A DNA stretch of 53,311 bases. It comes from Bacteroidales bacterium. Lineage in GTDB: Bacteria; Bacteroidota; Bacteroidia; Bacteroidales; UBA1556. Shown here in pieces: positions 7,556-53,311 of this stretch (its first letter is position 1; each line of letters starts with the position of its first letter). The stretch lies in the NCBI GenBank assembly GCA_016937295.1, contig JAFGWF010000099.1, positions 1 to 53,311 on the forward strand, written 5' to 3'. A program made the position numbers and the translations under genes. The notes beneath the pieces were generated by a model, which worked only from the letters and a program-made list of their open reading frames with translations, was not told where the DNA came from and ran no database searches.

Positions 7556-9189
7556 TAGTCTTTTGATTTAAGAAGATTGTTTAAATGAATTATTACACGG
7601 TTCGATGAATCGATATTTTGTCCCTTTTCAATCCAATATTTAGCCTCTTTTAGTTGATTATCAATCAGATAAAACTCGGCAAGTGTTGCGATATAGTGCA
7701 CATTTCCTAGGTTCAGTTCAATAGCGTTTTTGGCCAAATTATAAGCTCGTTCTTTATCTTTCTTTACAAAGAAAAGATGTTTGGCATAAGCATTCAAAGC
7801 CTCGCCATTATTGGGGTCAGCCATGAGCGCTTTTTCAAAACTCACTTCTGCTTCCTGATTTCTTTGCAGCGAATCGCGAATCATACCCATTAAGGTGTAA
7901 ATCTCCACTTTTTGTTCGTTTTTATAAACAAAACTAAGTCCCAGATTTAGTGAAGCTTCTGCCTCGGCAAAGTTTTTTATCTTGTACTGCGAAAGTCCGT
8001 TAAAATAATACATCTCTGCTTGTTGAGGAAACAACTCCATGGCACGGCGGGCATAGGATTGCATCGTTTGATAATCCTTCAAATCTCGACTTAAAAGCAC
8101 CACCTGTTTCCAAATCGGATAACGCGTGGAATCTATCGAAATAACTTGCTGATAAAGTTGCAAAGCTTCAGCGTAATTGCTATCCCGAACTAAATAATCA
8201 GCCCTCATAGTCATTGATTTGGGATCGGTCGGATGCGTTTCAACTAACAAACCCAACAATGTATCGGACTGTTTTCGGAGCTTATCATTTGCAGGATATT
8301 TGTCCAACAAATCGTACATTTTCACCATGATTTCTATCTTCTCATCGACATTCAAACCCTTGCTTTGCATGGCCTTTTTGGTTTCGTTATAGGATCTCTC
8401 AGGTTGGTTTTGCGAAGCATACCACGAAGCTAATACAACATGTATCTTTTCATCTTCAGGATTGATTTCCAATACTTTATTATAAAACTCGATGGCTTTT
8501 TCAGTTTGACCATCACGAATAAATATATCCGCAATAATGCCATAATATCGCTCATTATCCGGATATTTCTGAATTAGTTTCTCCATTTCGGCAATTGCTT
8601 CCTTGGTTTTTCCGGTTTTCAAATACAAATCCTTACGCTTTAAAGCAATCTCAGGATTTTCGCCAAACGTGCTTTCAATCAGATTATAGGCTTTTATGGA
8701 TTTGTTTAGATTGCCTAAGCGAAGATTGGCATTTACCAAACGGTAATAGTTGATTTGGTCGTCAGGAAATTTCTCCACTAAGGCTTCGCAAATCTCAAGG
8801 GATTTCTTATATTCCTTATTTTCAACGTATAACTGCGACAAATTTATCATTATCCAAGAATTGTCAGGAGCCAAGCGAAAGGCTTTTTCCCCAAAGTCTA
8901 AAGCTTTTGAAGGTTCTTTTTGACGCAATAGCTTCGATAGTTCATAATAGGCCGCAAAATGCTTTGGATTGTTTTTGATAATTTGTTCGTAAGCGTTCAA
9001 AGCACCTTCGTATTCCCCTTTCCAAAAAAGTCGTTTTGCTTCAATAAAAACTGCTGAATTTCGATAGTCATCTTCCGTAACGCTTTGACTTTCTGCCGTC
9101 TTGGTTAATGTTGAGCGGCTTGAACCACAACTCGTCAGTATGGCAAGACTTATCAGAAAAAAAGCAATATGACTTACGTAGTTTTTCAA
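7555..9189 (-). CDS. tetratricopeptide repeat lipoprotein
   Basis: 544 aa with a lipobox (ILTSCG). TPR-like A/Y/L-patterned 34-residue units repeat throughout. Confidence 0.8.
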   Translation of the reverse strand: MKNYVSHIAFFLISLAILTSCGSSRSTLTKTAESQSVTEDDYRNSAVFIEAKRLFWKGEYEGALNAYEQIIKNNPKHFAAYYELSKLLRQKEPSKALDFGEKAFRLAPDNSWIMINLSQLYVENKEYKKSLEICEALVEKFPDDQINYYRLVNANLRLGNLNKSIKAYNLIESTFGENPEIALKRKDLYLKTGKTKEAIAEMEKLIQKYPDNERYYGIIADIFIRDGQTEKAIEFYNKVLEINPEDEKIHVVLASWYASQNQPERSYNETKKAMQSKGLNVDEKIEIMVKMYDLLDKYPANDKLRKQSDTLLGLLVETHPTDPKSMTMRADYLVRDSNYAEALQLYQQVISIDSTRYPIWKQVVLLSRDLKDYQTMQSYARRAMELFPQQAEMYYFNGLSQYKIKNFAEAEASLNLGLSFVYKNEQKVEIYTLMGMIRDSLQRNQEAEVSFEKALMADPNNGEALNAYAKHLFFVKKDKERAYNLAKNAIELNLGNVHYIATLAEFYLIDNQLKEAKYWIEKGQNIDSSNRVIIHLNNLLKSKD

Positions 9190-10650: not shown

Positions 10651-10713
10651 AATCGTTTGACTAAGTGTTTCGCCGACAAAAGTATGGTTTTTAATGGAAG
10701 GTTAGCCATAAAA

Positions 10714-11139
10714 TCAAGAATTCAAGGCAGCTTCTATTTCTTTGATATAGGCCTTTTTGGGCTTTACACCTATAAGTTTTGCTACAGCCTTGCCATCCTT
10801 AAAAATAATTACCGTTGGAATATTTCTGATGCCTAATTGCTGTGCTGTCTGTTGATTAGACTCCACATCAAGTTTTGCTACCGTGGCGCGTTCGCTCATT
10901 TCTTCGGCAATTTCGCTGATAACCGGCCCCAAAATCTTACATGGTTGACACCATTCTGCCCAAAAATCAACTAAAACAACTCCTTTTGATGTTTTTGCTT
11001 TGAAATTTTTATCGTTTAATAGCACTAATTTCTCACTTGGACTACTATTCATCGAAGCTAAAATGCTTTTGTATCGGCTGTAAAACCAGATGACTGCGAT
11101 GAGAAAAATGCCAATTCCTAACCAAATATATATATTCAT
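10714..11139 (-). CDS. membrane-anchored thioredoxin
   Basis: 141 aa with an N-terminal TM helix and a thioredoxin fold carrying the WCQPC active site. Confidence 0.85.
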   Translation of the reverse strand: MNIYIWLGIGIFLIAVIWFYSRYKSILASMNSSPSEKLVLLNDKNFKAKTSKGVVLVDFWAEWCQPCKILGPVISEIAEEMSERATVAKLDVESNQQTAQQLGIRNIPTVIIFKDGKAVAKLIGVKPKKAYIKEIEAALNS

Positions 11140-11237
11140 AATTCTATATTTAAATTGTGGACAAAAGTCAAAAAAATATCCCTTTTTATTCTGATGGTTA
11201 TTGTTAATTTTACGTAATCAGTTCAACGAATTTTTCT

Positions 11238-35612: not shown

Positions 35613-35700
35613 GGAGAGATGCTCGAGTGGTTTAAGAGGCACGCCTGGAAAGTGTGTGTACGCCAAAAGTGTACCGAGGGTTCGAATCCCTCTTTCTCCG
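35613..35700 (+). tRNA. tRNA-Ser (anticodon GGA)
   Basis: I folded the cloverleaf by hand. The acceptor stem is GGAGAGA/TTTCTCC with one G.U pair. The anticodon stem is CACGC/GTGTG with loop CTGGAAA. It has a long variable arm, a T-arm GAGGG-TTCGAATC-CCTC and discriminator G. CCA is not encoded. Confidence 0.9.
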
Positions 35701-35753
35701 CAACTTTTTAAACTTAATTATTTTAATTATTGAGAATTAAACATTAACCAATC

Positions 35754-46322: not shown

Positions 46323-47324
46323 TTATTCATCGGGCTTTATATTTAATTTTCTTATTCGATTTGTTAGTTCCAACATTCGGGTCAATAATTCCTCAAATGT
46401 TTTTTTTGATTCGTCATAAATAAAACTTTCACGTAAGTTTTCGTAATCATTTCTCCAATTGTTTTGCAAGTTTTCTGGAGGACAAATCTGTATTTGATCA
46501 GGATAATGTGTTCGATAATCTATACTTTGAATATTGTTGAATTTTTGTCGGTGTTTGATTATGGTCTTGTACAATTCGGAGTTTTGCAATGCCGATTCTG
46601 CATTCGGGCTATCCATCATTTTTTCTAAATCGTATAAATGCCTCGACATTCTCTCTGAGCGTGGATTTTCTTTTTGATATTCTTCGTGCAATAAAAATAT
46701 CTTTTCTAAAAAAGTACGTTCCGGCAATACAGTTTTAAACAAACATTTTATTTCATTATCTATTTTCGGATACTGAGAGTGAATAAATGTGGTAATTGCT
46801 TTATCAGAATTGGGTTCATTTAGCGACATTGCACTAAATTCAATTTTCACAACAGGTAAAATATAATCAATTACCGTGGGAAGAATGCTTTTGTATCTCA
46901 CTTCAATAGTTACGATCATTGCACTACTGTTTTGCGTAATAAGTTCTATTTGATAGCTATGTATTCCGCGCGAAATCAGAATTTTATCAATCTCTGTTAT
47001 CAATGTTTCTTTTACGTAATGAAATGCGTTTCGGCGAATTGCCGTTCTTTGTTGGGTGGTTTCTTCGGGTAAGTCAAAGTATGAGCGGCTTATTGCTATG
47101 TCAATGTCTTCACTGAAACGATTAATCAGTCCCCAAGCCTTGCTCAAAGTAGTTCCGCCTTTGAATTGCAAAAAATCAGCCCACGACGTTTTTGACAATG
47201 CCATTAATATAGCACATACCCACCAATCTTTTTCAATCGCCTGCTCAACAATTTTTTTCGTTCCTGCCGTTTGTTGAAGCATGACAAGTCTTTCGTCTTC
47301 ATTATATTGAAACCAAATGCTCAT
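46323..47324 (-). CDS. abiEii: nucleotidyltransferase AbiEii/AbiGii-family toxin (type IV TA / abortive infection)
   Basis: 333 aa with the hallmark FKGGTTLSKAWGLINRFSEDIDI motif and a later RHLYDL motif. It overlaps the upstream antitoxin gene by 4 nt (ATGA). Confidence 0.9.
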   Translation of the reverse strand: MSIWFQYNEDERLVMLQQTAGTKKIVEQAIEKDWWVCAILMALSKTSWADFLQFKGGTTLSKAWGLINRFSEDIDIAISRSYFDLPEETTQQRTAIRRNAFHYVKETLITEIDKILISRGIHSYQIELITQNSSAMIVTIEVRYKSILPTVIDYILPVVKIEFSAMSLNEPNSDKAITTFIHSQYPKIDNEIKCLFKTVLPERTFLEKIFLLHEEYQKENPRSERMSRHLYDLEKMMDSPNAESALQNSELYKTIIKHRQKFNNIQSIDYRTHYPDQIQICPPENLQNNWRNDYENLRESFIYDESKKTFEELLTRMLELTNRIRKLNIKPDE

Positions 47325-47947
47325 TCTGTTATTTTTTTAATGATTGGTAGAAGCAATTCTTTAATCCAAACAGGAGATAAGTATAAGTCGTTCATCATTG
47401 TAGTCCTTTCGTCTGTTTTACTCTCTGAAATAAGACTTATGATTTTATTCCTGATTTCGTTCGTAACACGACTTTCGCCAAGTTCTTTTAAAGCGATGAT
47501 TATTAGAGGCAAAAGTTTACCTTTAAATTGGAAGTTTTTTTGAACGGCATTTTTAAAAATAATGGTTCTTTCCCCAACTTTTACTTTTCGTTTTGCGCCG
47601 TTAGTTATATAAACAGCGTTCATCGGGACTTGGGTAGAAAATCCAAGAATATTCAATGCTGTATCGCCCGTTGGCATAATTTGGGCTTTGTCGCGTTCGG
47701 CAATCTTGTGGGCAATTTGATCTAATGTTGGGTATAAAATACCAAACTGAGTATGTTTAGGATTCATATAAATGCCTGTAGCCACACGAACAATTGCGCC
47801 TTCGTTTTGCAAACGCGATAGCGTTCTTGTAACCAGATTATCGTTATTAACATCCTCAAAATCATTAATTGTAAACAATTCTCCGACTTTGATATTTAAA
47901 ATCCGGTCTCTTATAATTTGAGAAATACTGTATTCCATATTTTGCAT
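47321..47947 (-). CDS. abiEi: AbiEi-type antitoxin / DUF6088-like transcriptional regulator
   Basis: It has an N-terminal winged-helix-like region (TRTLSRLQNEGAIVRVATGIY) and is translationally coupled to the AbiEii gene. The start is placed at MQNMEYS (47947). The ORF-track start at 48091 runs through the flanking repeat. Confidence 0.75.
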   Translation of the reverse strand: MQNMEYSISQIIRDRILNIKVGELFTINDFEDVNNDNLVTRTLSRLQNEGAIVRVATGIYMNPKHTQFGILYPTLDQIAHKIAERDKAQIMPTGDTALNILGFSTQVPMNAVYITNGAKRKVKVGERTIIFKNAVQKNFQFKGKLLPLIIIALKELGESRVTNEIRNKIISLISESKTDERTTMMNDLYLSPVWIKELLLPIIKKITE

Positions 47948-48035
47948 CAATAATATGTCTGAAATATTCGGTAAATTTCGGACAAAATTACGATTTTTTT
48001 TGATATTACCATCACTGTTGAATTTATAAAAAAAA

Positions 48036-48111
48036 TGATGAAAATCCATAGATGAATTTTTATTAATGGAAACCCCGTAAATACGGTTCATGAACCGTAT
48101 CTACGGGGTTT
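48036..48111 (+). repeat. 76-bp direct repeat, copy 2 (right boundary of the AbiE cassette)
   Basis: It differs from 46077-46152 at 3 positions. The palindrome at 48073-48108 has one mismatch, at a different position from copy 1. Confidence 0.9.
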
Positions 48112-48177
48112 ATTTAGTTTTAATGAAACCACACGAAACCCCGAAAGTTTTCGGGGGTGCGGTAGCGGGGTAGCGGG
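48112..48177 (+). repeat. REP-like element, nested-hairpin variant
   Basis: ATTTAGTTTTAATGAAACCACACGAAA-CCCCGAAAGTTTTCGGGG-GTGCGGTAGCGGGGTAGCGGG has the same 5' flank, outer stem and GGTAGCGGGG tail as the REPs around the RAYT gene. The loop is replaced by an extra hairpin. Confidence 0.8.
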
Positions 48178-48265
48178 ATATAATCCTACGATAGAGAGAT
48201 TGGATTTTTTGAAACAAATCGATAAATAATTATCTAAGAATAAGTACCTTTGCTCGCATTAATTG

Positions 48266-48273
48266 TATATTTG
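48266..48273 (+). promoter_or_regulatory. candidate Bacteroidota -7 box (TAnnTTTG) for the RhuM/Doc gene block
   Basis: TATATTTG lies 25 nt upstream of the ATG at 48299. Confidence 0.35.
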
Positions 48274-48298
48274 CTATCCTAATTTTTGACTGTAAAAG

Positions 48299-49279
48299 AT
48301 GGAAATTCAGAATAAAATTGAGATATATCAGAGTGAAAATAAGCAGACTGAAATTGCAGTACAGTTTGATAAGGAGACTGTTTGGCTTGACGCTCATGTA
48401 ATCGCACAACTATTTGATGTACAACGACCTGCTGTTGTGAAGCATATTAATAATATCTTCAATTCAGGTGAACTACAAAAAACATCAACCTGTTCCATTT
48501 TGGAACAGGTTGCTGCTGATGGTAAGAATCGTAAAATGAAATTTTACAATCTGGATGTAATAATTTCTGTTGGATACCGAGTAAATTCAACTAAAGCAAC
48601 CCAATTTCGTCAGTGGGCAACACAACGTTTAAAAGACTATTTGGTTAAAGGATATGCAATTAATGAGCAACGTTTGGAGCAAAAGCAACAAGAAGTATTG
48701 CATCTCAAAACCGGAATACAGATTCTTAGCCGTGCTATTGAAGCCCAAAATAAAAACAAAGACAATGAAATTCTAAGCATTTTCGCTAAAGGTTTAGAGT
48801 TGCTCGATGATTACGATCATGAAGAATTAGACGTATTAGGTCAAACTACGAAGGAAACTATTTTTCCTACTTATGAAGAATATCTTGATTTTATTGGCGA
48901 CATGTATTCCAATTATGAGAGTGATGTGTTTGCGAAACCTAAAGATGAAAGTTTTCATAGTTCGATAAATCAAATTGCACAGACTTTTGAAGGGAAGGAG
49001 CTTTATTCAAGCATTCAAGAAAAGGCTGCAAATTTGTTGTATTTTATTGTGAAAAATCATTCATTTGTGGATGGAAATAAACGAATAGCAGCAGCCTGCT
49101 TCCTGCTCTTTCTTGATAAAAATAATGCACTTATGAAAAGCAATAATGAATCAATAATCAGTAATGAAGCCTTGGCTTCTCTTACACTTTTTATTGCCAC
49201 AAGTAAGTCGGAGGAGGCTGAGGTTGTTAAACGATTTGTAATAAGTATTTTGAACCGGAGTACCAGTCAGAGCTTATAG
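48299..49279 (+). CDS. RhuM-family N-terminal domain fused to a Fic/DOC (death-on-curing type) domain
   Basis: The N-terminal 125 aa match the RhuM pattern (..KFYNLDVIISVGYRVNSTKATQFRQWATQRLKDYLVKGY..). The C-terminus carries the Fic/Doc motif HSFVDGNKR (nt 49058-49084). Confidence 0.85.
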   Translation: MEIQNKIEIYQSENKQTEIAVQFDKETVWLDAHVIAQLFDVQRPAVVKHINNIFNSGELQKTSTCSILEQVAADGKNRKMKFYNLDVIISVGYRVNSTKATQFRQWATQRLKDYLVKGYAINEQRLEQKQQEVLHLKTGIQILSRAIEAQNKNKDNEILSIFAKGLELLDDYDHEELDVLGQTTKETIFPTYEEYLDFIGDMYSNYESDVFAKPKDESFHSSINQIAQTFEGKELYSSIQEKAANLLYFIVKNHSFVDGNKRIAAACFLLFLDKNNALMKSNNESIISNEALASLTLFIATSKSEEAEVVKRFVISILNRSTSQSL

Positions 49280-49323
49280 AATATTAGATTCATTGAGGAT
49301 ATAATTTAAAAGATTTATAGAAT

Positions 49324-49956
49324 ATGGCAACAGAGATTTATTACGAAAACAGGTATAACGTGTCTATAACTGAACAACAGTTAGTAAGCATGGATGTATT
49401 TAAAAAAATCACTACTGTAGATGGGATAATAAAAAAAATAGAATCCTATAAAAATAATATAATAACAGGTATTGAATATTATCTTGATGATGGTGAAGAT
49501 GAGACAACTGTTTTGGGAGGATTAGTAATTTTGGTTTCAAATAGTGTATCTATTATTGAACGAGAAACCTATCTAAACTATAGAATAGAAAGAATAAAAG
49601 TGTTTTTTAATAGCAGTCTAAAGTTTAAATCAAATTTGCTGTTCGATTCAAATAATAATTTAGTTTGTGAAGAAGAAATCGATATTTCAACTGACCAACC
49701 AATTTATAATCAAACGGAGAAAACATTATATGATTCAAATAACGAGAAAATACTCGGGTTCGATTATAATGCTGATGGAAGTATTGAGAAAATATGGGGC
49801 ATAATGGTTGAGGACAGATTAATATACAAGGACCTTGGATCTGTTTGGCCTGAGCAGTCATTAAGTGCTGAAAAGATAGATGATTATTTCCCAACACTTT
49901 TAAGTAATAATCCATATTATTCTGATGCTACATTTTTACCAGCGGCAATAGTATAG
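49324..49956 (+). CDS. hypothetical cytoplasmic protein, family A copy 1 (no recognised domain)
   Basis: 210 aa with no signal peptide. It is a paralog of 50101..50691, with nearly identical termini (MATEIYYEN.Y..ITEQQL ... NNPYY.DAT.LP). Confidence 0.6.
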   Translation: MATEIYYENRYNVSITEQQLVSMDVFKKITTVDGIIKKIESYKNNIITGIEYYLDDGEDETTVLGGLVILVSNSVSIIERETYLNYRIERIKVFFNSSLKFKSNLLFDSNNNLVCEEEIDISTDQPIYNQTEKTLYDSNNEKILGFDYNADGSIEKIWGIMVEDRLIYKDLGSVWPEQSLSAEKIDDYFPTLLSNNPYYSDATFLPAAIV

Positions 49957-50100
49957 AATAAATAGGTGAGGATTAAAGAATTATATTAATTTGGAAATTA
50001 ATGAGCAATGAGACAGATATTTTTTAAAAAAAAACTGTGAATTAAATAGCCCTCAACATAGTATTAATTAGACAACAATAATACATTATAATATTAAGAT

Positions 50101-50691
50101 ATGGCAACAGAGATTTATTACGAAAACAGTTATGACAAACCTATAACTGAACAACAATTGGGACAAATGACAGATTACAATAAAGCTATTAAAATAGATG
50201 GAGCTTTAAAGCTGAAAGAAATTTTTACTAAAAACAATCTAGTCTTTATTTCTTATTACAAAGATCAGAATGAGAGTGAGACTGATGCAATTAATTTTAT
50301 AATTACTCAGTATTCTGGTATTGCATTTGAAATAATTGACAAATCAACATCAGGGGCTTTTACTATTGAAACAGTTAAAGGATATGATAAAAATGGTGTT
50401 TTTGATCCTTATGAACGAATTTCTTTATATGACTCCCAAGGGAGGATGATTTATGAAAAAGAGGCAGATGATATTGAAGTAACAATTATGAAGTGGTATT
50501 ACTCATATTTGGGTCATCCTCTTAGATGCAAGTACAATGAAGATACTGGATTGATTGAAACTGTTGATATGATAAGTGCAGAGGATGAGAATACACCAAT
50601 TGAAATTTTTCTTAATAGAATTATGCCAGACTTCCTTAACAATAATCCTTATTATGCTGATGCTACTCTTTTGCCTTCAGGAAAAGTATAA
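50101..50691 (+). CDS. hypothetical cytoplasmic protein, family A copy 2
   Basis: 196 aa. Its first 29 nt are identical to those of 49324..49956. The C-terminal NNPYYADATLLP is conserved and the middle is divergent. Confidence 0.6.
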   Translation: MATEIYYENSYDKPITEQQLGQMTDYNKAIKIDGALKLKEIFTKNNLVFISYYKDQNESETDAINFIITQYSGIAFEIIDKSTSGAFTIETVKGYDKNGVFDPYERISLYDSQGRMIYEKEADDIEVTIMKWYYSYLGHPLRCKYNEDTGLIETVDMISAEDENTPIEIFLNRIMPDFLNNNPYYADATLLPSGKV

Positions 50692-50735
50692 AATGATATT
50701 ATTTAATCAATTGTAATAACAACAATTATAATATT

Positions 50736-51227
50736 ATGAAAGAAATAGAAATTAAATACAATAGTCAAAGGTTCTGGATAAAGGAATATTTTATCGAACT
50801 TTTAAGTCAGTATATTTGTGAAACTTTTGAAGAAATTGGTCTTTCAAGTTTTAATACTATATTAACAGGTATTTACGATGACTGTGACATGAACAGAAGC
50901 GGGGAAGCTTGTCAAAGTGTTAATATTTTATTAGATGATATTGTTAATACATCTGATAAGATTACAATGATAAGTGTATTGCAACAATCCAAAATTCGAG
51001 TTCTTTCTTTAGGGAATGAATTAAGTGTTTTCACGTTAAATGAATTTGAAAATAATAAGACAGATGATTCTTTTAAGCATCCATGGGAAATAGCTGTAAA
51101 AACACAAAGTCTTGCTGCTACAATTGACTTTATAATTGATCTGCTTAATGGGACATTTCAGTATCATAATAGAATGATTCATTACATAAATTTCCCTAAT
51201 CCTAACAATGCTTACATAATGGTTTAA
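50736..51227 (+). CDS. hypothetical small cytoplasmic protein, family B copy 1 (immunity-protein-like)
   Basis: 163 aa with no signal peptide. It aligns without gaps to 51255..51746, with 105/163 identical positions by hand count. Confidence 0.6.
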   Translation: MKEIEIKYNSQRFWIKEYFIELLSQYICETFEEIGLSSFNTILTGIYDDCDMNRSGEACQSVNILLDDIVNTSDKITMISVLQQSKIRVLSLGNELSVFTLNEFENNKTDDSFKHPWEIAVKTQSLAATIDFIIDLLNGTFQYHNRMIHYINFPNPNNAYIMV

Positions 51228-51254
51228 TAAGATAAATCTTAAATCAATAATAAT

Positions 51255-51746
51255 ATGAGCCAAATAATAATTAAATACAATAGTCAATGTTTTTGGATAA
51301 ACGATCATTTTATTGAGCTTTTAAGTCAATATATATGCGAAACTTTTGAAGATATTGGGCTTTCAACTTTCAACTCAGCATTATCTAGGATCTATTTTGA
51401 CTGCGATTTTAATAGATCTGGTGAAGCAATTCAAATGGTTAGCATAAGATTAGATAATATAATCACTCAAAATGATAAAAACACATTAATAAACATTTTT
51501 CTACAGACAAAAACAAGAATACTTGCTTTAGGAACTGAACTAAGCATTTCTCAATTAAATGCATTTGAGAACAATAAAACTGATGATCTGTATAAATTAC
51601 CTTGGGATTTTCCTGTTAAAACACAAAGTTTAGCCACCACGCTAGATTATATTATAGACTTATTAAATGGCACCTTTCAATATAATAATTATGGTATCCA
51701 GTACATAAATTTCCCCAATAATAGTGGTGATTATTTAATGATTTGA
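51255..51746 (+). CDS. hypothetical small cytoplasmic protein, family B copy 2
   Basis: 163 aa and a paralog of the preceding gene. It starts 27 nt after that gene's stop. Confidence 0.6.
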   Translation: MSQIIIKYNSQCFWINDHFIELLSQYICETFEDIGLSTFNSALSRIYFDCDFNRSGEAIQMVSIRLDNIITQNDKNTLINIFLQTKTRILALGTELSISQLNAFENNKTDDLYKLPWDFPVKTQSLATTLDYIIDLLNGTFQYNNYGIQYINFPNNSGDYLMI

Positions 51747-51778
51747 AATAATATTAGACTGTCTTAAATTTATAATAT

Positions 51779-51867
51779 CCCCCGCTGCCGCACGAATCCT
51801 TTCGTGTGGCAATACTCCCAGCTGCCGCACGAAACCTTAGTTCGACAAAGCCAATCCTTTCGTGTGG
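51779..51867 (-). repeat. two REP elements in inverted orientation upstream of the RAYT gene (short form 51779-51809, long-loop form 51817-51867)
   Basis: The reverse complement of 51779-51809 is CCACACGAAAGGATTCGTGCGGCAGCGGGGG, one mismatch from the downstream REP core. The second copy keeps the outer stem CCACACGAAA/TTTCGTGCGG around a 23-nt insert. Confidence 0.85.
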
Positions 51868-51901
51868 CTATAAAAAAAAGAAAACCAATTAAAATATTTT
51901 T

Positions 51902-51909
51902 TACTTTTG
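51902..51909 (+). promoter_or_regulatory. candidate -7 box (TAnnTTTG) immediately upstream of the RAYT start
   Basis: TACTTTTG ends 4 nt before the ATG at 51914, which would imply a leaderless or near-leaderless transcript. Confidence 0.3.
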
Positions 51910-51913
51910 AATA

Positions 51914-52471
51914 ATGAGCCGAAATTATAAATTTCATAATCCTAAAGGAGTCTATTTTGTAAGTTTTGCAGTAATAGAATGGTTGGATGTGTTTACTAGA
52001 AATGAGTATAAAGAGATATTTTTAGATTCTTTGAGATTTAGCCAACAGAATAAGGGCATGGAAATATTTGCATGGTGTATTATGACAAACCACGTACATT
52101 TAGTATTTAGAAGTTGCAATGATATAAAACCAGAAACAATGTTAGGTGATATAAAGCGCTTTACAAGTCGAAAGATAGTTTCAGCGATAATTGAAAATCC
52201 AAAAGAAAGCAGAAAAGATTGGTTATTGCAGCAATTTAGAAAAGAAGCAGAAAAGTCGAGCAATGTAAATCATTATCAATTTTGGCGACATGATAATAAG
52301 CCTATTGAACTTTGGAGCAATAAGGTGATTTCTGAGAAAATCAAATATATTCATAATAATCCAGTTAAAGAAGGATTGGTATATAAACCTGAAGAATATA
52401 TTTATAGTAGTGCAAAAGATTATGCTGGAGAAAAAGGAGTTTTGGAAAATGTTATTTGTGTTGATATTTAG
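51914..52471 (+). CDS. REP-associated tyrosine transposase (RAYT; IS200/IS605-like Y1 HUH enzyme)
   Basis: 185 aa with an HUH motif (NHVHLVF) and a C-terminal catalytic-Tyr region (PEEYIYSSAKDY). It is flanked by inverted REP hairpins. Confidence 0.85.
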   Translation: MSRNYKFHNPKGVYFVSFAVIEWLDVFTRNEYKEIFLDSLRFSQQNKGMEIFAWCIMTNHVHLVFRSCNDIKPETMLGDIKRFTSRKIVSAIIENPKESRKDWLLQQFRKEAEKSSNVNHYQFWRHDNKPIELWSNKVISEKIKYIHNNPVKEGLVYKPEEYIYSSAKDYAGEKGVLENVICVDI

Positions 52472-52563
52472 TTTTAATGAAACCACACGAAAGGATTCGT
52501 GCGGTAGCGGGGTTGATATTTAGTTTTATTGAAACCACACGAAAGGATTCGTGCGGTAGCGGA
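52460..52563 (+). repeat. two tandem 52-bp REP units
   Basis: The unit is GTTGATATTTAGTTTTAWTGAAACCACACGAAAGGATTCGTGCGGTAGCGGR. The two copies differ at 2/52 positions. The core hairpin is CCACACGAA-AGGA-TTCGTGCGG with a fixed A.C mismatch. The RAYT stop codon (52469-52471) lies inside unit 1. Confidence 0.9.
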
Positions 52564-52608
52564 GCAATTTTATAATTAGGAATTAATATATTATTTAAAT
52601 AAATATTT

Positions 52609-52965
52609 ATGAGCGTTATAGAAAATTATAAAGTAAGATTTTATATTTCTGATCTTGTTGGCGCAGCCATTAAGACTAACAATGGACTTTTAAGTTCGTT
52701 TATTTGGGAATATTGTGATTCAGACGAAGCAATCGATTTATTGGATGCAATAAATGATGTGTTAAATGGAAGCCTAACTATTGCTGATGGTGTAACTCAA
52801 GGCTTAATATTTGTAAAGATTTTAGCAAATACTACGAGTCTTTACAAAAATGCCGATGCATATTTTGAAGATGAAACGATTGCTCCTGATTATACAATTC
52901 CCACTACAGATTTAAAAGAAATTGTGGAAGCATGGTTAGATTATCTTAGTAGGGTATATGAATAA
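52609..52965 (+). CDS. hypothetical small acidic cytoplasmic protein (immunity-protein-like), gene C
   Basis: 118 aa with no signal peptide and no recognised family. It is bracketed by double-REP direct repeats. Confidence 0.55.
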   Translation: MSVIENYKVRFYISDLVGAAIKTNNGLLSSFIWEYCDSDEAIDLLDAINDVLNGSLTIADGVTQGLIFVKILANTTSLYKNADAYFEDETIAPDYTIPTTDLKEIVEAWLDYLSRVYE

Positions 52966-53003
52966 AAGGATAGGTTTAAGATATTTTATCATGCTGAATT
53001 TGA

Positions 53004-53115
53004 GTTATTTGTGTTTATAATTAGTTTTATTGAAACCACACGAAAAGGATTCGTGCGGTAGCAGAGAGATTTAGTTTTATTAAAACCACACGAAAGGATT
53101 CGTGCGGTAGCGGGG
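53004..53115 (+). repeat. double REP preceded by a copy of the RAYT 3' tail (direct repeat of 52451-52563)
   Basis: GTTATTTGTGTTTATAATTAGTTTTATTGAAACCACACGAAAAGGATTCGTGCGGTAGCAGAGAGATTTAGTTTTATTAAAACCACACGAAAGGATTCGTGCGGTAGCGGGG aligns to 52451-52563 with about ten differences, including small indels. Confidence 0.85.
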
Positions 53116-53206
53116 TCTATTTTGTAAGTTTTGCAGTAATAGAACGGTTGGAGGTGTTTACTAGAAATGAGTACAAAGAAATATTTTTAGATTCTTTGAG
53201 ATTTAG
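53116..53206 (+). pseudogene. 91-bp fragment of a RAYT gene (equivalent to ORF nt 38-128)
   Basis: It matches 51951-52041 at 87/91 positions. It has no start codon and is bounded on both sides by REP units. Confidence 0.85.
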
Positions 53207-53293
53207 TTTTATTGAAACCACACGAAAGGATTCGTGCGGTAGCGGGGGGGAAAGGATTGGCTTCGCCGAACTAGCGTTTCGTGTGGTAGCGGG
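53198..53293 (+). repeat. REP unit (53198-53250) followed by a long-loop REP variant lacking its 5' stem arm (53250-53293)
   Basis: GAGATTTAGTTTTATTGAAACCACACGAAAGGATTCGTGCGGTAGCGGGGGGG is followed by GAAAGGATTGGCTTCGCCGAACTAGCGTTTCGTGTGGTAGCGGG. The latter is homologous to the reverse complement of 51817-51867. Confidence 0.8.
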
Positions 53294-53311
53294 CGGTGAG
53301 GAGAAATTCCC

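Follow-up and report, generated by a model that had tools for sequence, protein, structure and literature searches.

Genes of families A, B and C

The DNA analyzed here, referred to as the window, is a stretch of 53,311 nucleotides from a Bacteroidales bacterium (assembly GCA_016937295.1, contig JAFGWF010000099.1) in which two tandem pairs of unannotated paralogs lie close to the right-hand end, on the forward (+) strand. The first pair, A1 (49324-49956, 210 amino acids) and A2 (50101-50691, 196 amino acids), belongs to family A and the second, B1 (50736-51227) and B2 (51255-51746), both of 163 amino acids, belongs to family B. These four genes had been singled out in a previous inspection of the letters alone (hereafter the sequence-only reading), and the table of open reading frames (ORFs) gave exactly the same limits and strand. 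A1 and B1 were matched by the hidden Markov models (HMMs) of their families with E-values of 3.5e-70 and 1e-87, respectively. A fifth gene of the same strand, orf118 (52609-52965, 118 amino acids), was assigned to a third family, C, by phmmer and jackhmmer searches. The present work deals with these five genes, with their relatives in other Bacteroidota and with the role that they could play.

A1 and A2 are 33% identical by BLASTP (E = 2e-23), their initial 29 nucleotides are the same and their termini are near-identical (MATEIYYEN..ITEQQL at the N-terminus and NNPYY.DAT.LP at the C-terminus), the middle of the proteins being diverged and of varying length. At the nucleotide level, similarity is restricted to the ends of the genes, 49301-49424 against 50078-50201 (70%) and 49906-49959 against 50641-50694 (80%), the second stretch corresponding to the last 54 nucleotides. 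B1 and B2 could be aligned without gaps and are identical at 105 of 163 positions (E = 2e-78). Both resemblances are far above chance. In agreement with the sequence-only reading, none of the four proteins contains a hydrophobic stretch of transmembrane grade (maximal 19-residue Kyte-Doolittle value below 1.6). Scans of A1, A2, B1, B2 and orf118 against Pfam, NCBIfam, PADLOC and PHROGs revealed nothing above noise, and A2 gave no match in a plasmid search.

In a word-indexed search of 5.8 billion proteins, only 3 and 12 matches were obtained for families A and B, respectively. An exhaustive HMMER search for family A yielded 228 representatives of 50%-identity clusters, nearly all of them full-length (190-220 amino acids), and a profile search for family B yielded 71 proteins of 161-168 amino acids in Flavobacterium, Pedobacter and Mucilaginibacter, corresponding to about 70 clusters at 90% identity. 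Compared directly, the two families are unrelated. The AlphaFold2 (AF2) model of B (mean predicted local distance difference test score, pLDDT, of 87; predicted template modeling score, pTM, of 0.85) consists of an N-terminal beta-hairpin and five helices, for which Foldseek found no fold match in PDB or BFVD better than E = 0.2 with a template modeling score of about 0.25. The model of A2, computed from 4 sequences only and predating the deep alignment of family A, is unusable (pLDDT 48) and shows mostly beta-hairpins at low confidence. The sole profile match of family A to sequences of the PDB was an M16 peptidase, at a marginal E-value of 8e-4, and was judged not convincing. The vague likeness of the A proteins to MORN/YwqK repeats that had been remarked upon could not be established: the MORN_2 matches were weak and concerned 4 of 68 members (best E = 0.007), none of them A1 or A2, and hhalign comparison of family A with a MORN_2-positive family encoded in the slot described in the next section gave a probability of 16%.

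Two particular members were encountered during these searches. In one locus (L012), the gene at 8001-9068 joins an A-family domain to a multi-pass membrane region at the C-terminus (355 amino acids); it lies inside an array of small membrane proteins placed between transketolase and rpsP. In a metagenome contig (L003), the neighbor of a lone B gene (10685-11158, minus strand) encodes a signal-peptide protein in which YwqK/MORN-like repeats (G.W..Y..NG) could be recognized by eye, and which would be another immunity-type gene.

The selection acting on the window genes was estimated by pairwise ratios of nonsynonymous to synonymous substitution rates (dN/dS, NG86 method) with L001 and L002, two metagenome contigs that carry the same cassette and are described in the last section. 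Between A2 and the A gene of L001, identity is 87% and dN/dS 0.43; for the A gene of L002 the figures are 97% and 0.36. B2 and the second B gene of L001 share 83% identity, with a dN/dS of 0.16, the value for B1 and the first B of L001 is 0.26, and that of the neighboring RhuM-Doc gene, taken as a control against L001, is 0.30. The range of 0.16-0.43 found for the A and B genes indicates that they are maintained by purifying selection, A being more relaxed than B. The diversifying selection postulated in the sequence-only reading was thus not observed, the gene-wide dN/dS values of 0.08-0.5 being those of purifying selection.

Between the paralogs themselves, synonymous divergence is saturated (dS of 1.3 for A1/A2 and 2.6 for B1/B2) and closer relatives are found in other loci: A1 is 40% identical to a toxin-linked A of Pedobacter (L076), closer than to A2, and B1 is 71% identical to the metagenome B of L003, compared with 64% to B2. 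Neither pair is therefore the product of a recent tandem duplication. The independent tandem duplications that had been deduced from the A-A-B-B order are unlikely, the paralogs being old and the order A-B-B being already present in L001; the pairs rather look assembled by recombination or insertion.

The E effector cluster and its downstream partners

The A homolog P0075 of Edaphocola (L009) and the B homolog P0020 of Pedobacter (L005) occupy a common slot, preceded by genes for proteins of 736 and about 950 amino acids and followed by a gene for a protein of more than 2000 amino acids, all of them homologous between the two loci. With the N-terminus of this giant protein as a handle, 75 loci were retrieved from Flavobacterium, Chryseobacterium, Kordia, Pedobacter, Mucilaginibacter, Edaphocola and other genera. 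Their common order is a gene for P736 (707-749 amino acids), a gene for a protein designated E (about 900-1250 amino acids), a small gene abutting E, 0 to about 10 more small genes, the giant gene (2100-3000 amino acids) and a second giant gene (at least 1500 amino acids), as exemplified by positions 4189-21219 of L015. In 32 of the 75 loci, A or B genes precede the giant gene, on the same strand in every case; none was found downstream of it.

The N-terminal 580 or so residues of E are conserved and can be aligned across all C-terminal types, the C-terminus being variable. Of 12 sampled proteins, 9 have a hydrophobic segment near residues 550-690; no signal peptide was found in them, P736 and the giant proteins likewise lack one, and for E Pfam was negative for Rhs/YD, haemagglutinin, PAAR, LXG or any other known trafficking domain. 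No type VI secretion system (T6SS) gene was identified adjoining E. The genes upstream of P736 (patatin, two-component genes, amine oxidase) are not conserved and so do not help to identify the system. A description of the P736-E-giant cluster was not found in the searchable literature, which is not proof that none exists, and the cluster is apparently an undescribed and widespread polymorphic effector locus.

The relation between the C-terminus of E and the abutting gene was analyzed on 55 pairs, separated by -41 to +44 nucleotides and mostly by 1-28. The last 280 residues of E were clustered, the abutting genes were clustered independently, and the two partitions map onto each other almost one to one. 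E cluster 0 is followed by family A in 17 of 17 pairs and cluster 1 by family C, here with proteins of 108-125 amino acids, in 14 of 14, and clusters 3, 4 and 5 are followed by the partner families DS2 (5/5), DS3 (4/4) and DS4 (4/4), respectively. Cluster 2 is united only by the region that precedes the C-terminal domain (CT); within the terminal 150 residues or so, the three B-linked E proteins, together with fragments in L005 and L006, have a sequence of their own in common. When the terminal 160 residues only were considered, an adjusted Rand index (ARI) of 0.65 was obtained, a value reached by none of 10,000 permutations, which never exceeded 0.19, and each CT cluster mapped to one partner family, save one singleton. 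The type of CT and the partner family thus co-vary behind a conserved N-terminal body. At least seven further C-terminal types of E were found, each with its own unannotated partner family.

These results were extended by scanning HMMs of the A-linked and B-linked domains (CT-A and CT-B) over all six-frame segments of 90 loci. Behind CT-A, full or partial, A always starts at -34 to +19 nucleotides (+5 to +19 except in one case); this concerns 21 anchor-scan loci and one IMG/VR contig (L090), distributed over Edaphocola, Flavobacterium, Kordia, Chryseobacterium and Pedobacter. Behind CT-B of more than 100 residues, B always starts at -1 to +13 nucleotides (L005, L006, L029, L045, L053, L057 and L082). 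Truncated CT fragments accompanied by an immunity-type gene, which had not been used to build the models, were detected in L030, L039, L053, L057, L074 and, twice, L084. The A and B homologs consequently stand where an immunity gene is expected, directly downstream of a CT and on its strand. The window genes are recognizable relatives of these CT-linked copies: A2 and the E-linked A of L015 share 34.5% identity, and the B protein linked to CT-B in L005 is 49% identical to B1 and 55% to B2.

Among the loci examined, family C (108-130 amino acids) joins about 30 genes of the slot by jackhmmer, including all partners of CT cluster 1, and abuts an E protein of this cluster in at least 14 genomes. 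It is also found after B in Flavobacterium tyrosinilyticum (L004) and after A in L010. With phmmer, orf118 matched the C proteins of L059 (E = 1e-19) and L039 (3e-11) and the copies abutting E (1e-4 to 8e-4), the E-values of these local searches referring to a small database. As orf118 belongs to this third family of the slot, the array of the window extends beyond B2, where the sequence-only reading had ended it.

C-terminal domains of E and the toxin-less array

The sequences of CT-A are only about 20% identical over 16 proteins and yet keep an invariant F, G-S, D(x)D and P. This G-S...DxD pattern, with a distal D/P, resembles that of Pol-beta-fold nucleotidyltransferases and, judged from these invariant residues, CT-A looks like a nucleotidyltransferase. 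It carries no Fic motif. In CT-B, a pattern E...GD...D...DxK could be recognized. Below the thresholds, 1 of the 16 CT-A sequences matched Pfam Polbeta at E = 0.03 and a CCA-adding enzyme was matched at E = 0.6, one CT-B weakly matched CdiA_C_tRNase and CT cluster 3 weakly matched Toxin-deaminase. One partner family of the same slot (the L072 type) passes the Pfam threshold of MORN_2, a YwqK-type immunity repeat. Furthermore, a gene of about 182 codons for an RNase_T/DEDD 3'-5' exonuclease abuts A in 5 loci (L017, 9088-9630; L040, 6196-6744; L046, 5596-6147; L084, 6279-6827; L089, 9412-9957) and was never found without A (Fisher p = 0.004). Speculatively, its presence beside A would fit a CT-A that modifies the 3' ends of nucleic acids, and the exonuclease may be an enzymatic counter-measure to this nucleotidyltransferase-like domain.

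In the 53-kb window, homology and HMM scans detected no homolog of P736, E, the giant protein, CT-A or CT-B. The A1-A2-B1-B2 genes, without any E, CT fragment or giant gene, therefore represent a toxin-less orphan array, the five genes of families A, B and C all lying within 3.6 kb. Such mixed arrays are recurrent, as judged from the window and three other cases. In Pedobacter sp. BAL39 (L089), a B fragment, B, A, A and the exonuclease gene precede a truncated giant gene. In F. tyrosinilyticum, an orphan B-C pair (L004) lies more than 1.1 Mb from a complete CT-A/A system (L044) on the same contig. In Mucilaginibacter OAE612 (L006), an AbiEii gene and an AbiEi-like gene are followed by a CT-B fragment, B and a second B gene, B'.

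The sequence-only reading had proposed that the array is of the orphan immunity type, and this proposal is supported by the position of the A and B homologs directly behind CT types with which they co-vary and by the absence of an effector from the window. We consider it probable, at about 0.7, that A1, A2, B1, B2 and orf118 are orphan immunity-type genes whose families are the downstream partners of CT-A, CT-B and CT cluster 1 of E. In a strain that makes E, the product of the abutting gene would attach to the C-terminal toxin domain of that same E and neutralize it; the toxicity of the E C-termini, their neutralization by A, B and C, the protective role and the way of delivery are inferred. 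In the window, the five proteins, soluble and cytoplasmic as predicted, would only guard the cell against E-type toxins delivered by neighboring Bacteroidota, and the presence of two divergent A and two divergent B copies could broaden the range of toxin variants covered. The cassette would be a relic of the immunity slot of an E cluster, the sister locus L001 keeping a 54-residue remnant of the giant protein, and it now resides in a low-GC hotspot rich in REP and RAYT elements (see below), beside AbiE and RhuM-Doc.

Several observations weigh against this interpretation. Every match of the E C-termini to a toxin family is below the curated thresholds, and CT-A has no profile similarity to the AbiEii protein of the window (hhalign probability 0.25%). 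P736, the N-terminal domain of E and the giant proteins, which should be the carriers, have no relatives in Pfam, PHROGs or the sequences of the PDB. The gene-wide dN/dS values bear no sign of an arms race. Moreover, ORFs were called by a simple ATG-first rule, L005 is frameshifted and many of the 75 loci are from related species, so that fewer independent events took place than the locus counts suggest.

Tail fibers and their chaperones show the same signature, in which a small downstream gene co-varies with the variable C-terminus of a protein whose N-terminus is conserved. A, B and C could accordingly be chaperones, assembly factors or adaptors for a variable receptor-binding or cargo domain at the C-terminus of a fiber- or adhesin-like E, the window copies being leftovers. 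This explanation is compatible with a weak Phage_fiber_rpt match (E = 1e-4) in a gene of 369 codons located before the giant gene in L061, with a CHAP hydrolase gene upstream in Flavobacterium loci and with the presence of the cluster in one "viral" contig of IMG/VR. However, P736 and the giant protein are absent from 50,697 phage genomes and have no PHROG match, and of the 2.9 million viral contigs of IMG/VR, the giant gene and the cluster are carried by 1 and B by none, so that the phage genomes do not show the presence expected for a tail-fiber chaperone. The catalytic-type G-S...DxD residues kept by CT-A at such a low overall identity, the weak matches pointing to toxin families and the MORN_2 immunity-type protein in the same slot also argue against chaperones, for which arrays without any fiber and under purifying selection (window, L004, L089) would be unexpected. 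We consider this explanation unlikely.

Orphan modules of a CT and its immunity gene are said to lie downstream of rhs and cdiA in the polymorphic toxin framework attributed to Zhang, Aravind and colleagues (2012). The E loci resemble this arrangement by the conserved N-terminal body, the variable C-terminal domain, the tightly linked immunity-type gene and the accumulation of truncated modules behind the main gene (in the six loci with fragments cited above). They differ from it in that E has an internal hydrophobic segment and neither a known trafficking domain nor a signal peptide, and in that the modules accumulate between E and the giant gene. MenT/AbiEii-type toxins form a nucleotidyltransferase toxin family; CT-A has the G-S...D-x-D motif and the distal acidic residue of the Pol-beta-fold enzymes in common with them, whereas it has no significant sequence or profile similarity to them and is the tip of a secreted-type effector and not the toxin of a toxin-antitoxin pair. 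YwqK/MORN_2 immunity proteins are small, soluble, beta-hairpin-rich and encoded after polymorphic toxin domains; the L072-type family of the slot passes the MORN_2 threshold, family A remains below it, and B is helical and unrelated.

The TANFOR toxins and the DNase-immunity pair BaCT/BaCTic are a Bacteroidota-specific class recognized from genomics, with novel CT domains and diverse unannotated immunity proteins (PMC7073777), and are comparable to the E system in this respect. A (D/E)xK motif is described for BaCT (PMC7073777) and may also exist in CT-B, the two being compared by description only. TANFOR toxins mostly have Sec signals and neighbors that are substrates of the type IX secretion system (T9SS), unlike the E proteins, and no accession or organism is shared with the tables of that report (PMC7073777).

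A more far-reaching extension of the immunity reading, which we put forward tentatively and hold to be rather doubtful, is that the P736-E-slot-giant-giant cluster constitutes a new class of polymorphic toxin system of environmental Bacteroidota, perhaps with its own delivery, that CT-A is a nucleotidyltransferase toxin countered by the binding of A and, in some strains, by enzymatic repair through the exonuclease, and that the cassettes spread through REP/RAYT elements as community resistance genes. A delivery apparatus of its own is possible because the searches turned up neither a Sec signal nor any T6SS, T9SS, Rhs or phage marker.

Through the immunity interpretation itself, the three unannotated families gain a testable role, with CT-A/A, CT-B/B and CT1/C as candidate pairs. 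If this interpretation is true, there could be a new nucleotidyltransferase-type toxin with an exonuclease partner, and orphan immunity arrays would exist outside the gut, tied to REP/RAYT elements. The host genera are bacteria of soil, water and rhizosphere, whose interbacterial weaponry is far less understood than that of the gut Bacteroidales.

The cassette and its REP/RAYT setting

The first gene of the cassette encodes a fusion of RhuM (Bro-N-like) and Fic/Doc (48299-49279, + strand; Pfam Virulence_RhuM E = 5e-27, Fic E = 3e-12; PADLOC candidate single-gene system PDC-S23 E = 2e-120). The same cassette is found in L001 and L002 at 83-98% nucleotide identity and between other flanking genes (PRK and DUF1801/TGT), the homology covering 48177-49382 and 50099-51779. 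The order is RhuM-Doc, A, B, B in L001 and split RhuM-Doc, A, without B, in L002. The body of A1 (49383-50098) is extra with respect to both contigs and is inserted after the common 5' end. In L001 and L002, the cassette is followed by an ORF of 54 codons that is a remnant of the giant N-terminus (MP..P.IIRRYYPTL; tblastn E = 2e-5).

This arrangement raises the possibility that A counteracts the upstream RhuM-Doc as its antitoxin, the whole being a three-part toxin-antitoxin or defense module with B as an accessory. A starts 44 nucleotides after RhuM-Doc in the window, L001 and L002, the PDC-S23 match points in the same direction and AbiE is present in the island. The three loci carry a single cassette, so that the adjacency of RhuM-Doc and A counts as one evolutionary event, and more than 40 other A loci have no adjoining RhuM or Fic gene, A following CT-A there; the partnership is thus confined to this cassette lineage, and the conservation across lineages expected of a Phd/Doc pair was not seen. 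In addition, A1 was inserted behind Doc and ahead of A2 with no Doc copy of its own, and in L002 RhuM-Doc is split in a RhuM and a Fic ORF (a mosaic, with an N-terminal part at 76% and a Doc part at 99% identity) while A is 97% conserved. Known Phd-type antitoxins, for their part, are small and encoded upstream of doc. The antitoxin explanation appears very improbable.

Directly upstream of the cassette, on the minus strand, lie genes for an AbiEii nucleotidyltransferase toxin and a DUF6088/AbiEi-like antitoxin (46323-48091, Pfam); the array of L006, with its CT-B fragment, B and B', likewise adjoins an AbiEii pair. The GC content falls to 0.28-0.31 over 49000-53311, from about 0.38 elsewhere in the window, which would fit an island gained by horizontal transfer. 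The sole tRNA gene of the window, tRNA-Ser (35613-35701), is not close to it. With AbiEii/AbiEi and the PDC-S23-like RhuM-Doc as neighbors and this low regional GC, the genes could be viewed as anti-phage defense or anti-defense specificity factors of a defense island, unrelated to interbacterial toxins. However, A, B and C have no match in PADLOC or PHROGs, and their conserved context elsewhere is the E cluster and not defense genes, which makes this alternative, too, highly unlikely.

The nearest counterparts of the window, taken as orphan immunity genes, are the acquired interbacterial defense (AID) clusters and orphan immunity arrays of gut Bacteroidales (bioRxiv 10.1101/471110; PMC10470768; bioRxiv 10.1101/2025.05.03.651265). 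Like these, the window has several toxin-less immunity-type genes in a variable part of a Bacteroidota genome that was apparently gained by horizontal transfer, with divergent paralogs of one family in the array. It differs from them in that the cognate toxins would be the CTs of an undescribed effector of about 1000 amino acids beside giant proteins, and not known T6SS effectors, and in that families A, B and C are unannotated. In the recombinase-associated type (rAID), the repeats are associated with a recombinase, whereas the window has no Xer-type recombinase and is flanked by repetitive extragenic palindromic (REP) elements and a REP-associated tyrosine transposase (RAYT). The three partner families, the cognate effector class, the extension to orf118 and the REP/RAYT setting are new here.

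As stated in the sequence-only reading, the leaders of A2 and B1 have motifs in common, ACAACAAT at 50072 and 50719 and ATTATAATATT at 50085 and 50725; they are real but short (8 and 11 nucleotides) in AT-rich DNA, and no function is attached to them. A scan for promoters and terminators was uninformative: the count of promoter-like sequences was equal to the shuffled expectation, and the sigma-70 consensus that was used is not valid for Bacteroidota.

The left edge of the cassette is marked by a REP-like element (48109-48166, + strand; repeat family D1, inverted pair I14, core motif search). A REP-like doublet of the minus strand (51774-51883; inverted pairs I1-I9, direct repeats D8 and D15), with exact core matches at 51798 and 51856, marks the right edge of the cassette and at the same time borders the RAYT gene on the left. 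The RAYT gene itself (51914-52471, + strand; NCBIfam REP_Tyr_transpos E = 8e-25, above the cut-off) lies between B2 and orf118 and is flanked by inverted REPs. It is followed by a second doublet before orf118 (52463-52572, +; D1 copies at 52463-52520 and 52515-52572), and after orf118 by more REP copies of families D1 and D3 (53016-53255, +), among which a second RAYT 5' fragment (53112-53206) is 95% identical to 51947-52041. Inverted REPs bracket the cassette, the RAYT gene and orf118. The REP core CCACACGAAAGG...GTGCGGTAGCGGGG has 9 of its 12 window matches in the last 5 kb, where 2.5 are expected by chance. A RAYT remnant is also present upstream of the cassette in both L001 and L002, and movement of the cassette by REP/RAYT-associated recombination is plausible.

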